Assembly: GCF_003991155.1 (NCBI RefSeq)
Contig: NZ_CP031293.1
Length of the DNA: 64,000 nt
Direction: 5' to 3' (one strand)
DNA from: Escherichia coli
GTDB lineage: Bacteria > Pseudomonadota > Gammaproteobacteria > Enterobacterales > Enterobacteriaceae
The notes beneath the pieces were generated by a model. That model ran no database searches, was not told the origin of the DNA, and worked only from the letters and a program-made list of their open reading frames with translations. Shown piece after piece: positions 4,926 through 14,382 of this stretch (the first letter of the stretch is position 1; every line of letters starts with the position of its first letter). Made by a program: the position numbers and the translations under genes.

Positions 4926-6155
4926 ATGAAAACAACAGCTCTGCGTCTTTATGGTAAACGTGATTTACGCCTGGAAACCTTTGACCTTCCTGAAATGCAG
5001 GAGGATGAAATCCTCGCAACGGTGGTCACTGACAGCCTGTGCCTCTCTTCCTGGAAAGAGGCCAATCTGGGGGAAAACCATAAAAAAGTACCCGACGATG
5101 TGGCGACCAATCCCATCATCATCGGCCACGAATTTTGCGGCGATATTCTGGCCGTGGGTAAAAAGTGGCAGCACAAATTCCAGCCGGGTCAGCGTTATGT
5201 GATTCAGGCCAACCTGCAACTCCCCGACCGCCCGGACTGCCCCGGCTACTCCTTCCCGTGGGTAGGCGGCGAAGCGACGCATGTGGTTATTCCCAACGAG
5301 GTCATGGAACAAGATTGCCTGCTGGCATACGACGGCGAAACCTATTTTGAAGGCTCGCTGGTTGAACCGCTTTCCTGCGTGATTGGCGCGTTCAACGCCA
5401 ACTATCATCTTCAGGAAGGTAGTTATAACCACACGATGGGGATTCGCCCGCAAGGGCGCACGCTGATCCTCGGCGGCACCGGACCAATGGGACTGTTGGC
5501 GATTGATTATGCGCTACATGGACCCGTTAACCCTTCGCTGCTCGTCATTACCGATACCGACAACGACAAATTGAGTTATGCGCGCAAGCACTATCCATCA
5601 GAACCGCAAACACTGATTCATTATCTCAATGCCACCGATGCAGCATTTGATACGTTAATGGCGCTGAGTGGCGGTCACGGCTTCGATGATATTTTCGTCT
5701 TTGTGCCTAATGAAGGACTGGTGACTCTCGCCTCTTCCTTGCTGGCGACAGATGGTTGCCTGAATTTCTTCGCCGGACCGCAGGATAAGCACTTCAGCGC
5801 GCCAATTAATTTCTACGATGTGCATTATGCATTTACCCACTACGTAGGCACGTCAGGCGGCAATACCGACGACATGCGCGCAGCGGTCAAATTGATTGAA
5901 GAGAAAAAAGTGCAGGCCGCAAAAGTGGTAACACATATTCTTGGGCTGAATGCCGCGGGCGAAACCACGCTTGAATTGCCTGCCGTCGGCGGCGGGAAAA
6001 AACTGGTGTATACCGGGAAATATCTGCCGCTGACATCACTCACGCAGATTCAGGATGAAGAACTGGCGGCGATTCTGGCGCGTCATCAGGGAGTCTGGTC
6101 CGGCGAGGCGGAGCAGTACCTGCTCGCCCATGCAGAGGCGATTTCCCATGATTAA
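4926..6155 (+). CDS. sorE: L-sorbose-1-phosphate reductase, Zn-dependent alcohol dehydrogenase (MDR) family
   Basis: ORF 4914-6155; preferred start ATG 4926 after GAGGTGG; MDR-type motifs (GHEFCG; GGTGPMG nucleotide-binding loop); last sor gene. Confidence 0.7.
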   Translation: MKTTALRLYGKRDLRLETFDLPEMQEDEILATVVTDSLCLSSWKEANLGENHKKVPDDVATNPIIIGHEFCGDILAVGKKWQHKFQPGQRYVIQANLQLPDRPDCPGYSFPWVGGEATHVVIPNEVMEQDCLLAYDGETYFEGSLVEPLSCVIGAFNANYHLQEGSYNHTMGIRPQGRTLILGGTGPMGLLAIDYALHGPVNPSLLVITDTDNDKLSYARKHYPSEPQTLIHYLNATDAAFDTLMALSGGHGFDDIFVFVPNEGLVTLASSLLATDGCLNFFAGPQDKHFSAPINFYDVHYAFTHYVGTSGGNTDDMRAAVKLIEEKKVQAAKVVTHILGLNAAGETTLELPAVGGGKKLVYTGKYLPLTSLTQIQDEELAAILARHQGVWSGEAEQYLLAHAEAISHD

Positions 6156-6960
6156 TCGCGATACTCAACTCTGCATGTCGCTGGCCGGCTGCCCCGGTAA
6201 CTTCGGCACGCGTTTTCACAATTATCTTTATGAAAAGCTGGGGCTGAATTTCATCTATAAAGCGTTCACCACCCAGGATATTGCAGCGGCGGTGAAAGGG
6301 GTTCGCGCGTTGGGTATTCGCGGTTGCGCTGTGTCGATGCCGTTTAAAGAAAGCTGCATGCCTTTTCTCGACGCGATCGATCCGTCGGCGAAGGTCATTG
6401 ATTCCGTGAATACCATCGTGAATGACGACGGCAGGCTGACCGGGTTTAACACCGACTATATCGCGGTGAAAAGCCTGATTACCCACCACCAGCTCAATAC
6501 CACCACGCGAGTGATGATTCGCGGCAGTGGCGGCATGGGCAAAGCGGTGATTGCCGCCTTTCGCGACGCGGGGTTTACGGATGTTATCATTGCCGCCCGC
6601 AACCGCGAGAGCGGCCCGGCGCTGGCGAAGCAGTATGGGTTTCAGTGGCAACCGCAGCCGGAAGGCATCGCCTGCGACATTCTGGTCAACGTGACGCCCG
6701 TTGGCATGAGCGGCGGTAAAGAGAGCCATGAGCTGGCCTTCAGCGAAGCGATGGTCTCAACGGCAAGCGTCGTTTTTGATGTCGTGGCCTTGCCGCCGGA
6801 AACGCCGCTCATTCGCCTGGCGCAACGGCTTGATAAGCAGACGATTAGCGGTGCGGAGGTGATTGCTTTACAGGCCGTCGAGCAGTTCGCAATGTATACC
6901 GGCGTACGGCCTGATGCGCAACTGATTGCTGAGGCGGCACAATTTGCACGAGAAGGATAA
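6148..6960 (+). CDS. Shikimate 5-dehydrogenase-like (AroE/YdiB family) NAD(P)-dependent dehydrogenase, function in this context unknown
   Basis: ORF 6055-6960; preferred start ATG 6148 overlapping sorE stop (ATGATTAA); AroE-like motifs SMPFK and NTDY, glycine-rich GSGGMGKA. Confidence 0.6.
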   Translation: MINRDTQLCMSLAGCPGNFGTRFHNYLYEKLGLNFIYKAFTTQDIAAAVKGVRALGIRGCAVSMPFKESCMPFLDAIDPSAKVIDSVNTIVNDDGRLTGFNTDYIAVKSLITHHQLNTTTRVMIRGSGGMGKAVIAAFRDAGFTDVIIAARNRESGPALAKQYGFQWQPQPEGIACDILVNVTPVGMSGGKESHELAFSEAMVSTASVVFDVVALPPETPLIRLAQRLDKQTISGAEVIALQAVEQFAMYTGVRPDAQLIAEAAQFAREG

Positions 6961-7082
6961 GAAACATCAGCGCCTTGTTTGCCACGCCAGAAGCAATGCG
7001 CAACATCGTGAGCCATGTCAGTAAGCGGTTAAAATCACAGTGGTAGCATGGCTCCCGTGATTTCTTACTAACCGGAGAAGTA

Positions 7083-7861: not shown

Positions 7862-9493
7862 TTAATACTCGTCCCGTCCTTCGTCTTCATCCGGCTGTTC
7901 CAGCACACTGTAAGCCACCGAACAAAACAGCGAGTTCAGACGCTGCATATCTCCCAGTAAGCCTAAATGTAGCGAACTGGTTTCAATGCTTTGCACGTTT
8001 TGCTGATGCAGGCGATCGACGTGAGCATGGGAATAACGGCGATTAAGAATGCGAAAGCGATGCTTGCTGCGGCGCAAACGACGGGCGCTGGTAACATCGC
8101 CAGAGAAGAAAACCGACATTGCCAGTTTTAAATTACTGAGCAATTGCTCATAGAGCGCATCCAGTTCCTTCAAGCCATCAAGCGAAAATGCCCGCCGTGC
8201 TGCCAGCGATTTATCGGCAATTTCGCTCCCCATGCGCTCGACGATATCGGAGGCCTGTTCAAGGTTGAGCGACATTTCGATGATCTCCGCCCAGCGGCGC
8301 GACTCTTCCTCCGCCAGCTCTTCTTTTGGCATCCGCGCCAGATACAGCTTAATGGCGGTATAGAGAACGTTGATATCATCTGCCAGCTTACGCAGCTCTT
8401 TCTCCTGCCGTGGCTCGCCGTGCATCACTTTATTCAGCCCTTCCATCATCTGTTCCATGGCGTCGCCAATGCGCAGGGTTTCGCGCGCGGCGTTCGCCAG
8501 AGCAAGCGTGGGCGTATCCAGCGCGCTGACATCCAGATGTTTGGGTCGTAGCTGGGTATCCAGTTCCGGTTCATCGCGAATAATCGTTTTGCAAAACCGT
8601 GCCATCGGGTCAACAAATGGCAGCATGACCAGGCAGCGTACAAGGTTGTAGAAGACGTGGAAATAGATCACCAGTTCCGCTTTTGGCAGTGGCAACTTCC
8701 CCATTGTCTCTGCCAGCAAATGGACAAACGGCAGGATAATCAGGCTACCCACCAGCTTAAACAGCAGGCTACCCAGCGCGACACGGCGGGCTGCGGCATT
8801 GGCGGCACTGTTGTTGAGCATCGCCAGCAGACCGGAACCGAGGTTAGCACCAATCACCAGACAGAGCGCCACGGGGAAGGAGATAATGCCTGCGGCGGTC
8901 AGAGTCGCGGTCAGCAGTACAGCAGCAAGGCTGGAGTAGCTGATAATGGCGAACATCGCGCCAATCAGCGCATCCAGCAGAATATCGCCGGTCAGCGAGG
9001 CAAAGATCACCTGAACGCCGTTTGCCTGGGTGATCGGCGTTACGGCCTGCACAATCAACTCCAGCGCCAGCAAAATCAGCCCAAGACCAATACCGACGCG
9101 GCCCAGTTGCCCGGCGCGTGACTGTTTGCGTCCGAGGAAAAAAATCACGCCGATAAAAATAAGTAACGGTGACAGCCAGGATAAGTCGAAGGTGAGAATA
9201 CGCGCCATTAGCGCCGTCCCGACATCTGCACCCAGCACAATCACCAGAGCCGGTGCGAGGGCTACCAGATCCTGAGCGACAAACGAGGTCACCAGCATGG
9301 TGGTGGCATTACTGCTCTGCACCAGTGCGGTAACGCCTATCCCCGCGCAAAAGGCGAGCGGCTTCTTTTCGACGCTTCGGCTAAGAACAGTACGCAGACG
9401 CGCGCCGAAGACGCGCATTACGCCGGTTCGAACAATATGAGTCCCCCAGACCAGCAGGGCGACGGCAGAAAGCAGGTGAAGCAAAGTTAGCAC
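7862..9493 (-). CDS. yjbB: Na+/phosphate symporter-like inner membrane protein (PhoU-domain containing)
   Basis: 543 aa; GTG start with GGAGAA upstream; multi-TM N-terminal half plus charged PhoU-like C-terminal half. Confidence 0.85.
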   Translation of the reverse strand: MLTLLHLLSAVALLVWGTHIVRTGVMRVFGARLRTVLSRSVEKKPLAFCAGIGVTALVQSSNATTMLVTSFVAQDLVALAPALVIVLGADVGTALMARILTFDLSWLSPLLIFIGVIFFLGRKQSRAGQLGRVGIGLGLILLALELIVQAVTPITQANGVQVIFASLTGDILLDALIGAMFAIISYSSLAAVLLTATLTAAGIISFPVALCLVIGANLGSGLLAMLNNSAANAAARRVALGSLLFKLVGSLIILPFVHLLAETMGKLPLPKAELVIYFHVFYNLVRCLVMLPFVDPMARFCKTIIRDEPELDTQLRPKHLDVSALDTPTLALANAARETLRIGDAMEQMMEGLNKVMHGEPRQEKELRKLADDINVLYTAIKLYLARMPKEELAEEESRRWAEIIEMSLNLEQASDIVERMGSEIADKSLAARRAFSLDGLKELDALYEQLLSNLKLAMSVFFSGDVTSARRLRRSKHRFRILNRRYSHAHVDRLHQQNVQSIETSSLHLGLLGDMQRLNSLFCSVAYSVLEQPDEDEGRDEY

Positions 9494-9663
9494 GGAATCA
9501 GGTTCTCCTTTTTGTTATGCATTTTCCTGTTAAGATTTTTCTAATCACGTTATTTTTATCCAGGCATTTCTCTTGTATGTACTTTCAGTATAAGAGATTT
9601 ATACAAGAAAGCATTTAAAAAGGCATTTATATAAAAATCCACCTGTATCTGTTGCTATTTCTG

Positions 9664-10113
9664 TCACACTTTCCCCTGTCGTTTACACCAGATAATCGTT
9701 GTCACTTTTGTGACCTCTGAGAAGATAAACAACGAAATATTTAAGACCAGATCCTGTGAATGAAAATAATTAAGTAACAACGGTATTACGGAGATTGAAC
9801 AGCTTACGGTAGCAAAACGCATAAACTCCTGAATCGCCAAAAAAGAGAAACTAAATAATTCTTGTCTTAAAAAACATTGCGCAGAAAAGAATAAAGAGAA
9901 CAATAATACTATTTGTAGCGTAACAGTGGCGACTGCATAAGCGTAAAAACCGCCTTCAACACCGATATCCTTAAGTAAAGAAAGTGAATGAACGATATCG
10001 GAATAAAAAGGGATACGACCATTACCAAGCGAGTAGAACAAATATGTGGCTATCGCGATAACATCCATGACACCCCAAAAAAGAAGAATGTATTTTTTAT
10101 ATTGACGTTGCAT
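9664..10113 (-). CDS. Small hydrophobic membrane protein, unknown function (accessory)
   Basis: 149 aa; ATG start with AAAGGA upstream; about 4 predicted TM segments; AT-rich codon usage unlike flanking core genes. Confidence 0.4.
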   Translation of the reverse strand: MQRQYKKYILLFWGVMDVIAIATYLFYSLGNGRIPFYSDIVHSLSLLKDIGVEGGFYAYAVATVTLQIVLLFSLFFSAQCFLRQELFSFSFLAIQEFMRFATVSCSISVIPLLLNYFHSQDLVLNISLFIFSEVTKVTTIIWCKRQGKV

Positions 10114-10155
10114 AAAGTAAATCCTTTTTACGAAAACAAATATTACCAGGAATTA

Positions 10156-10476
10156 TTATAATTGCGGGCGTTTTTGGATTAACACTCCACCCGTATTTTT
10201 AAAAATCCTGTCAGCCATACCTTCACTAAACAAGACATCGATACGCCCTTTACTTTTATCGTGATACAGAATACTGCATGAGATACACCTTATACCCTCT
10301 TTGGATTTACGAAAATCTAACCAAAAACGACCATCATAAAAGACCCACTCCACACCTGTTTTTATATTAATTATCCAATCATTATAACCTGTTGGTTTTT
10401 TTCCTAATAGTTCAGTAACTTCGGACTCTGAACATCCTTCGAAAGCAAAAAAATCTATTTCATCGATTTTTATCAT
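10156..10476 (-). CDS. Small soluble protein, unknown function (accessory)
   Basis: ORF 10156-10482 opens on TTG; preferred ATG at 10476 (MIKIDEIDFF); Trp/Phe-rich; AT-rich; no strong SD. Confidence 0.35.
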   Translation of the reverse strand: MIKIDEIDFFAFEGCSESEVTELLGKKPTGYNDWIINIKTGVEWVFYDGRFWLDFRKSKEGIRCISCSILYHDKSKGRIDVLFSEGMADRIFKNTGGVLIQKRPQL

Positions 10477-10502
10477 GTTCAATAATCCATTATTTATGAC
10501 AT

Positions 10503-10530
10503 TAAAAACCGGGGCAAATACCCCGGTGTT
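10503..10530 (-). terminator. Rho-independent terminator of metH
   Basis: Minus-strand hairpin CCGGGGTATTTGCCCCGG followed by TTTTTAATG immediately after metH stop. Confidence 0.7.
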
Positions 10531-10535
10531 ATCAC

Positions 10536-14219
<3,684 letters not shown>

Positions 14220-14382
14220 ACTTGCTCCCGACACGCTCAACCCAGATTTAATAAAAATTCAACAAACCATACTGGCATAAACGCATCTGTGGTAAAAGCA
14301 ACCACTACCCAACATGAGATTTGTTCAACATTAACTCATCGGATCAGTTCAGCAACTATTGCATTAGCTAACAATAAAAATG

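Follow-up and report, generated by a model that had tools for sequence, protein, structure and literature searches.

Among the 64,000 nucleotides of Escherichia coli DNA analysed here (contig NZ_CP031293.1 of assembly GCF_003991155.1; hereafter the window), the interval between metH and yjbB carries two small genes, which we refer to as sol, encoding a soluble protein of 106 amino acids, and mem, encoding a membrane protein of 149 amino acids with four transmembrane (TM) segments; together they are termed the cassette. Relatives of mem in other bacteria lie immediately downstream of a protein domain, the C-terminal part of DUF8093 (PF26362; hereafter DUF8093-C), which also forms the end of VgrG proteins in type VI secretion systems (T6SS). 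On the basis of this gene neighbourhood we infer, with a probability of about 0.55, that DUF8093-C is a T6SS toxin domain, that the mem family provides its immunity protein and that mem of the window is an orphan immunity gene. The toxicity of the domain, the immunity function, the protection conferred by the E. coli copy and a site of action at the membrane are all proposed on this same basis. A preliminary description of this DNA had listed orphan immunity among several options for the two genes, and for mem this option gains support from a family whose constant upstream neighbour is the VgrG-fused DUF8093-C.

The mem family was recovered with a phmmer query of 255 amino acids, in which sol and mem were joined, by an exhaustive search of 1.84 billion representative sequences. 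It comprises about 45 clusters of proteins of 137-180 amino acids, which match mem from end to end at 24-44% identity and are found in Enterobacteriaceae, Pectobacteriaceae, Pseudomonas and Burkholderia. In the family alignment, R99, S106, E133 and K136 are invariant and W13, G14, D17, P35, S73 and Q95 nearly so, and the motifs FWGxMD, GRIPxxxD, QxPxRL, PSxS and SExxK recur. The mem protein of the window, which is of the WP_001189562 type, matches the family hidden Markov model (HMM) over its full length (E=4e-48) and is 34-40% identical to the effector-linked members. The mem family is a real, previously unnamed family of small inner-membrane proteins with four predicted TM segments. In mem itself these segments lie at about residues 8-28, 55-80, 98-116 and 121-142, as placed by hydropathy and by the helices of a low-confidence AlphaFold2 (AF2) model, and the first loop contains an amphipathic helix. 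Both termini are basic, which suggests an N-in/C-in topology.

Neither protein matched Pfam (searched with single sequences and with alignments), NCBIfam, PADLOC, PHROGs or the sequence profiles of the PDB, and a word-indexed search of 5.8 billion proteins returned only Escherichia copies of sol and mem and frameshifted fragments of them. Two apparently distant matches (P0033 and P0034) were rejected as frameshift products. Mem-family entries of 138-145 amino acids from Klebsiella aerogenes, Klebsiella pneumoniae and Salmonella enterica (e.g., WP_004152228.1) carry the name "arginine:ornithine antiporter" at NCBI. We rejected this name, since family members of 138-150 amino acids with four TM segments and no NCBIfam or Pfam match stand against an antiporter of the APC superfamily, with about 470 amino acids and about 12-13 TM segments; it is probably a propagated misannotation.

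To place the family in its genomic context, 30 loci were retrieved and scanned by tblastn and by HMMs built from the alignments made here; related loci were searched for with a 10-sequence subset of the 45-sequence mem-family alignment, because the full set is too diverse. In 12 other species, a mem-family member is encoded directly downstream of a DUF8093-C gene, frequently overlapping it or at a distance of no or one small gene. Where DUF8093 is a stand-alone protein of 266-269 amino acids, the stop codon of its gene falls within the mem homologue, 4-26 nt from the start of the latter; such overlapping pairs occur in four Kosakonia species, Pseudocitrobacter faecalis, Enterobacter sp. Bisph1, Trabulsiella, a soil metagenome-assembled genome (MAG) and GCA_015558715.1, and the locus tags of the two genes are consecutive in Affinibrenneria. 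The slot seen in the window, just upstream of yjbB and in most cases downstream of metH, is also that of the mem homologue in many Enterobacteriaceae, while the overlapping pair of Trabulsiella is located between a yliI-like gene and bssR. Since the pair is found at such varied sites, the constant unit is DUF8093 with mem and not mem with yjbB.

The link to the T6SS comes from the C-terminal part of DUF8093. A profile search found VgrG proteins that end in this domain of about 120 amino acids (about residues 150-269, GPGYW...YEFKK) at 53-56% identity; the domain is polar, rich in tryptophan and charged residues and matches nothing known. In Citrobacter braakii it follows the DUF2345 domain of a VgrG encoded among the Hcp, ClpV, PAAR and TssM genes of a T6SS cluster, in Serratia microhaemolytica it follows the gp5 trimerisation domain, and a VgrG of Burkholderia cepacia ends in it as well. 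In a VgrG of S. enterica, residues 908-1022 correspond to DUF8093-C by HMM, with genes for TssK, DotU and related proteins upstream, and this VgrG gene precedes a mem homologue that had been retrieved independently of the DUF8093 search. The reciprocal test gave the same picture: all three of the DUF8093-C/T6SS loci tested carry a mem-family open reading frame (ORF) directly downstream or one small gene further on (E=3e-42 to 9e-51). In C. braakii, the mem homologue overlaps the VgrG stop codon by ATGA. In Salmonella and Burkholderia, a small transthyretin (TTR)-like ORF lies between the VgrG-DUF8093-C gene and mem, and an Rhs effector gene follows mem. The small ORF encodes 116 amino acids in Salmonella (L032:6645-6995) and 96 in B. 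cepacia (L036:588-878), the two products being 54% identical to each other, and it resembles the TTR-like stretch ahead of the toxin domain in the B. cepacia VgrG.

Across 12 pairs, toxin domains that are more alike go with mem proteins that are more alike (correlation of pairwise identities, r=0.88, Mantel p=2e-4), and Salmonella and Burkholderia form the closest pair for both proteins (86% for the toxin domain, 56% for mem). The correlation shows co-inheritance of DUF8093-C and mem, not necessarily their interaction; the module thus moves as a unit. Mem-family genes additionally occur alone. In K. aerogenes and K. pneumoniae such a copy lies between pgm and kdpE, in Pseudomonas guariconensis it comes after SCO1, in Superficieibacter and a MAG it occupies the metH-yjbB interval, and in Phytobacter it has a helix-turn-helix gene and yjbB as neighbours. 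The lone copies between housekeeping genes of Klebsiella and Pseudomonas agree with how orphan immunity genes are usually arranged. With the exception of B. cepacia, nearly every host shows a GC content 10-20 points lower in the mem or cassette DNA than in the neighbouring DNA.

The window contains the presumed immunity gene only. The DUF8093 HMM had no match among the ORFs of the 64-kb window, where the gene upstream of mem is sol, which is unrelated to DUF8093; no Escherichia protein was among the DUF8093 profile matches in the word-indexed search of 5.8 billion proteins, and blastn with the toxin-domain DNA of C. braakii found no match in 5426 E. coli genomes. PADLOC gave DUF8093 only one insignificant match.

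A domain at the VgrG tip, a small downstream gene that travels with it and lone copies of that gene make up the standard signature of T6SS effectors and their immunity proteins. On the reading that we favour, DUF8093-C would be delivered in one of two forms, fused to the C-terminus of an "evolved" VgrG spike or as a stand-alone protein of 269 amino acids, and mem would neutralise DUF8093-C toxins that other Enterobacteriaceae inject, for example Citrobacter, Salmonella, Enterobacter and Kosakonia. Because the putative immunity protein is a polytopic membrane protein, the toxin would probably act at or in the inner membrane. Several points weigh against this proposal. The mem protein of the window shares only 34-40% of its residues with toxin-linked members, so that cross-protection is uncertain, and the invariant charged residues within or beside the TM segments would also suit a small transporter or an enzyme. 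A mem-family gene adjoins yjbB in many genera, and a physiological link is possible. With the TTR-like gene between VgrG and mem and the Rhs gene after it, the pairing in Salmonella and Burkholderia is less clean. The absence of DUF8093 from Escherichia is drawn from one DNA search and a word-indexed search of proteins rather than an exhaustive protein scan of E. coli genomes. AF2 models built on shallow, Escherichia-only alignments reached predicted local distance difference test (pLDDT) scores of 40 and 45 for the two proteins, which makes them unusable and too poor for structural support. Finally, we found no publication on toxicity of DUF8093-C or protection by the mem family and none on "DUF8093"; literature searches on the family, the metH/yjbB intergenic locus, evolved VgrG proteins and orphan immunity retrieved nothing on this family or locus, and the catalogues of Salmonella T6SS effectors that were consulted do not describe DUF8093-C or mem.

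Orphan T6SS immunity genes are represented by the orphan immunity arrays of Vibrio cholerae and the acquired interbacterial defence islands of Bacteroidales. The cassette resembles them in that mem is homologous to an effector-linked gene, that no cognate effector was found, that its GC content is low, that it varies between strains and that it is predicted to protect against non-self toxins. It differs in being a single gene, or two unrelated ones, at a constant site between housekeeping genes, where array, integrase and adjacent T6SS genes are all lacking, and in that mem is a polytopic membrane protein and not a periplasmic or cytosolic binder, with family and toxin both uncharacterised. 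Small polytopic immunity proteins of the inner membrane are those against pore-forming colicins and against membrane-targeting toxins of the type VI and type VII secretion systems. Like these, mem has about 150 amino acids, four TM segments and two ends predicted to be cytoplasmic, and its family is encoded directly after the toxin gene; unlike them, it shows no detectable sequence similarity to known examples, and the polar DUF8093-C is not a hydrophobic pore-former. A membrane-depolarising toxin is available for comparison (PMC12258717). Orphan immunity proteins have further been discussed for the Rhs NADase effectors of Serratia (PMC10539506), and a putative T6SS immunity islet has been described in Salmonella Typhi (PMC7400221). 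Evolved VgrG effectors with downstream immunity genes include VgrG2b and VgrG-NucSe1/SARI_02602 (PMC12992299; PMC6899460). The relatives described here follow their layout, in that a VgrG ends in DUF8093-C, preceded by DUF2345 or a TTR-like region, and the mem homologue is the next gene, overlapping in C. braakii; DUF8093-C, in contrast, belongs to no recognisable catalytic family, and the window has neither a VgrG nor the toxin. Orphan immunity genes and evolved VgrG effectors as such are already known, while this putative effector/immunity family and its orphan in B2 E. coli are new.

The cassette is widespread and maintained in E. coli. With positions 9560-10500 as the query, 1132 of 5426 complete E. 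coli genomes gave a match, always on the chromosome and as a single copy, and in 1131 of them at essentially full length. The carriers listed include S88, O25b:H4-ST131, ATCC 25922 and A0 34/86, which we take to be members of phylogroup B2. E. fergusonii carries both genes, and E. whittamii and matching metagenome contigs carry mem only (84% amino acid identity). The two frames hold up as real genes: in all 45 records sampled evenly from the 1132, both are intact coding sequences, and within Escherichia the ratios of nonsynonymous to synonymous substitution (dN/dS) are 0.16-0.34 for sol and 0.13-0.35 for mem, as against 0.01-0.02 for metH and yjbB. Because the coding sequences are intact, dN/dS is below 1 and distant homologues share conserved residues, sol and mem are protein-coding genes under moderate constraint and not chance ORFs. 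When the metH-yjbB junction is compared across Escherichia, the cassette is present in these E. coli genomes and in E. fergusonii and missing from K-12, and it is annotated as "hypothetical protein", never with a function.

Among the alternatives, an ordinary role in the envelope is unlikely. Mem would then be an accessory of YjbB, a protein of the Na/Pi-cotransporter family, or a small transporter in its own right, and its link to DUF8093 would reflect a shared function other than toxicity. Mem does immediately precede yjbB, and both are read in the same direction, in Escherichia, Kosakonia, Pseudocitrobacter, Superficieibacter, Phytobacter, an Enterobacter sp. and two MAGs, even where the other neighbour is not metH; a terminator scan found no terminator-like site between mem and yjbB in the window, and the invariant polar and charged residues within or beside the TM segments would suit a transporter. 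However, family members are also encoded far from yjbB, in the T6SS clusters of Salmonella, Citrobacter and Burkholderia, between the yliI-like gene and bssR, between pgm and kdpE and after SCO1, and yjbB occurs without mem in about 79% of E. coli genomes, K-12 being one of them. In addition, a conserved promoter-like element belonging to yjbB itself is retained downstream of mem in all aligned genomes (n=13), and mem shows only 34-40% identity between genera whose YjbB proteins share 89-95%.

That the cassette is instead a functionless leftover of an old effector/immunity locus, hitch-hiking between two essential-like genes, is likewise unlikely. No cognate toxin was found, E. whittamii has a sequence resembling repetitive extragenic palindromic (REP) elements where sol would be, most E. 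coli genomes lack the cassette, and a few truncated or frameshifted variants exist; the low GC content suggests silencing by H-NS. These observations are set against two ORFs that are intact in every sampled E. coli record and in E. fergusonii, against dN/dS values well below 1 and against a start codon and Shine-Dalgarno sequence that are conserved across species with a dS of about 0.6. Mem is maintained.

Very unlikely is a third explanation, in which sol and mem would form a conflict module of their own (toxin-antitoxin, abortive infection or superinfection exclusion), with a cytosolic sensor and a four-TM effector after the fashion of RexA/RexB or Kiwa. The layout of a soluble gene, 42 nt and a four-TM gene in AT-rich DNA invites this comparison, as does a sol homologue of Serratia fonticola at the end of a phage-tail-like gene cluster. 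The likeness to RexA/RexB of phage lambda and to KwaA/KwaB of Kiwa is superficial, being confined to a soluble gene followed by a four-TM gene of about 145 amino acids; the cassette has no phage context, and sol and mem are not co-inherited outside Escherichia. The PADLOC library includes models of RexAB, Kiwa and Abi systems. For sol and mem it gave no match at E<=1, PHROGs gave none, no relatives were found on phage contigs, and the cassette was never found on plasmids or viral contigs. The abortive-infection or phage-defence role that the preliminary description had entertained is therefore not borne out, and neither is its view of sol and mem as a functional soluble/membrane pair, since the genes are separable: E. 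whittamii and all other genera with mem lack an accompanying sol, and the upstream partner of mem in other genera is a protein of 269 amino acids that hhalign shows to be unrelated to sol.

The separability of the two genes is also seen from sol. This protein, of the WP_052925210 type, has neither a signal peptide nor a TM or other hydrophobic segment, and the exhaustive phmmer search found only three distant clusters of relatives, at 37-43% identity. One relative occupies the metH-yjbB site of an enterobacterial MAG (L010) without mem, a second, also without mem, lies in S. fonticola in a stretch of lower GC with the phage-tail-like cluster on one side and dapA on the other, and the third is on a contig of 1.4 kb; a search of viral contigs yielded no relative of sol. 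Since sol exists without mem, which a mem-dependent toxin could not, the two are not a toxin/antitoxin pair. Sol is no homologue of DUF8093 either (hhalign probability 0.07%), and no homology emerged when it was compared with the small ORF that separates VgrG from mem in Salmonella. Sol would thus appear to be an independent small accessory gene in the slot that DUF8093 holds in other genera, and not the toxin partner of mem; that it may be a second orphan gene of the immunity type is a guess. In S. fonticola (L009:1-7190), the sol homologue lies about 800 bp beyond the phage-tail-like cluster (Baseplate_J, tail fibre, HP1_ORF34-like), which abuts dapA-bamC and may be a prophage remnant or a tailocin.

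Least probable of all is a role of the mem family as a membrane-anchored adaptor or chaperone for the loading or secretion of DUF8093-C effectors, for which the tight translational coupling to the effector gene and the usual adaptor-gene position of mem between VgrG and the Rhs effector in Salmonella and Burkholderia would speak, whereas the known T6SS adaptors and chaperones (Eag/DUF1795, DUF4123 and DUF2169) are soluble, and the effector-less lone copies of Escherichia, Klebsiella and Pseudomonas suit immunity and not a chaperone.

The comparison of alleles shows how the cassette is distributed within Escherichia. A spacer of 219 bp between metH and yjbB, which shares with the window only about 32 bp adjoining the yjbB start, takes the place of the cassette in the remaining E. 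coli genomes, among them K-12, in line with the short gap given for K-12 in the preliminary description. The K-12 spacer retains TTTTCCTTACAAC, a hairpin and TATACT, which are common to other genera downstream of mem and absent from the Escherichia cassette allele. A simple deletion as the origin of the K-12 spacer was rejected, as the spacer retains an element that this allele lacks; the locus thus holds old alternative alleles, and the cassette is an old allele of the metH-yjbB spacer that is missing from K-12-like lineages. The metH terminator hairpin of the cassette allele is kept in the alleles of E. fergusonii, E. whittamii and KK19-02 and not in K-12, which has a different terminator. 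E. whittamii also keeps the Shine-Dalgarno sequence and start region of mem, and in place of sol it has about 220-290 bp with the REP-like sequence GCCGGATGCGCTACGCTTATCAAGCCTA (L020:5709-6000, L004:1537-1825); between E. coli and E. whittamii, mem is about 83% identical in nucleotide sequence and the flanks about 92%.

Between E. coli and E. fergusonii (L008), the cassette is 93-95% identical in nucleotide sequence with a dS of 0.11-0.18, and metH is 94.9% identical with a dS of 0.26. Because the identity of the cassette tracks that of metH, the comparison fits co-inheritance of the two rather than recent import. A recent transfer of the cassette between the two species was considered and dropped, as the divergence of metH resembles that of the cassette and yjbB is the outlier. 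The yjbB gene of this E. fergusonii genome (L008:5984-7615, compared with 7862-9493 of the window) is unusually diverged from that of E. coli, with 85.5% nucleotide identity and a dS of 0.86, which suggests a recombination boundary near the yjbB start. Plasmid copies of mem or sol were likewise rejected, since the matching "plasmid" records carry chromosomal housekeeping genes; NZ_CP134663.1 (4.9 Mb; metH-yjbB) and NZ_OP378648.1 (316 kb; glnS-fur-pgm-kdp) look like mislabelled chromosomes or chromosome fragments.

Within the window, yjbB (7862-9493) and metH (10536-14240), both on the minus strand, enclose 1042 bp (9494-10535) with the two intact ORFs on the same strand. Read along that strand, the order is the metH stop, the terminator hairpin, sol, a spacer of 42 nt, mem, 170 bp and the yjbB start (Table 1). 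In 200-nt windows, the GC content is 0.30-0.375 across 9500-10500 and 0.54-0.60 in the flanks. The preliminary description was right about two co-oriented small ORFs, the second with a Shine-Dalgarno sequence and about four TM segments, and about an AT-rich insert, whereas its extent has to be corrected from about 850 bp to the whole spacer of about 1040 bp, all of which is foreign with respect to K-12. It was also right that mobility genes and flanking repeats are absent: no mobility gene lies between metH and yjbB, and the cassette flanks have no significant direct or inverted repeats. By these signs the cassette does not qualify as a mobile element or genomic islet, and it is not mobile by itself. 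It has no match in Rfam at E<=1. A promoter consensus scan returned 5 sites, compared with 3.5 expected in shuffled sequences, so that the match upstream of sol is no evidence of function. The spacer between mem and yjbB contains a TATACT box resembling a -10 element at 9588-9593 (+ strand).

Table 1. Positions of features in the metH-yjbB interval of the window, followed by mem-family genes misnamed as antiporters in other genomes
Feature	Position	Strand	Basis or remark
metH intrinsic terminator hairpin, strong (ACCGGGGTATTTGCCCCGGT then TTTTT)	10508..10527	-	Terminator scan; marks where the cassette allele meets metH
Weak match to a sigma-70-like promoter (TTGCCC-17-AATAAT), immediately upstream of sol	10489..10517	-	Consensus scan only
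sol, 106 aa, ATG 10476, stop 10156-10158	10156..10476	-	108 aa if the start is TTG 10482
sol-mem spacer, 42 nt, with Shine-Dalgarno AAGGA at 10126-10122, 8 nt ahead of the mem ATG	10114..10155	-	
mem, 149 aa, ATG 10113, stop 9664-9666	9664..10113	-	Hydropathy, family HMM
mem-yjbB spacer with conserved yjbB upstream element TCTCTTATACTG and yjbB ribosome-binding site	9494..9663	-	13-genome alignment of yjbB upstream regions
Misnamed mem-family gene, K. aerogenes	L030:7001-7417		
Misnamed mem-family gene, K. pneumoniae	L038:7989-8426		
Misnamed mem-family gene, S. enterica	L032:7001-7432		

The opposite side of yjbB, towards pepE, may be variable as well. A ccdA gene or a ccdA-ccdB toxin-antitoxin pair lies directly downstream of yjbB in the enterobacterial MAG with the sol relative (L010:10307-10600) and in Phytobacter (L015:10287-10786), and E. 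coli has pepE there, which makes this position another small variable slot near the cassette. At about 6000-7016 of the window (L001:1-561), a strain that matches exactly has a gene annotated in RefSeq as "shikimate 5-dehydrogenase" upstream of pepE. In another MAG (L018), the same type of dehydrogenase, a zinc alcohol dehydrogenase and sorbose-type phosphotransferase system (PTS) genes follow yjbB, and in E. fergusonii (L008) the dehydrogenase and a PTS gene are found on that side.

Beyond the assignment of mem as an orphan immunity gene, a wider interpretation is possible, which we put forward as distinctly tentative: DUF8093-C and mem would represent a new T6SS effector-immunity family aimed at the inner membrane, of which B2 E. 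coli, E. fergusonii and E. whittamii kept the immunity without the weapon, the cassette being a lineage-specific determinant of colonisation resistance and metH-yjbB an exchange slot. If this is true, these lineages, of which B2 is rich in extraintestinal pathogenic E. coli and includes ST131, ST95 and ST73, would resist T6SS attack by Enterobacteriaceae of the gut, Citrobacter, Salmonella and Enterobacter among them, and metH-yjbB would be a conserved slot of Enterobacteriaceae in which effector and immunity alleles are swapped by homologous recombination in the flanking genes. DUF8093 would gain a function as a toxin carried on VgrG, with a polytopic membrane protein conferring immunity to it, and the work on the mem family flags a systematic misannotation as "arginine:ornithine antiporter" in Klebsiella and Salmonella genomes. 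A "hypothetical" gene of about one fifth of complete E. coli genomes, major extraintestinal pathogenic clones among them, would acquire a testable function. Orphan immunity genes are thought to shape coexistence with T6SS-armed neighbours in the gut, and an example fixed in the B2 lineage would offer an easy system in which to test this.

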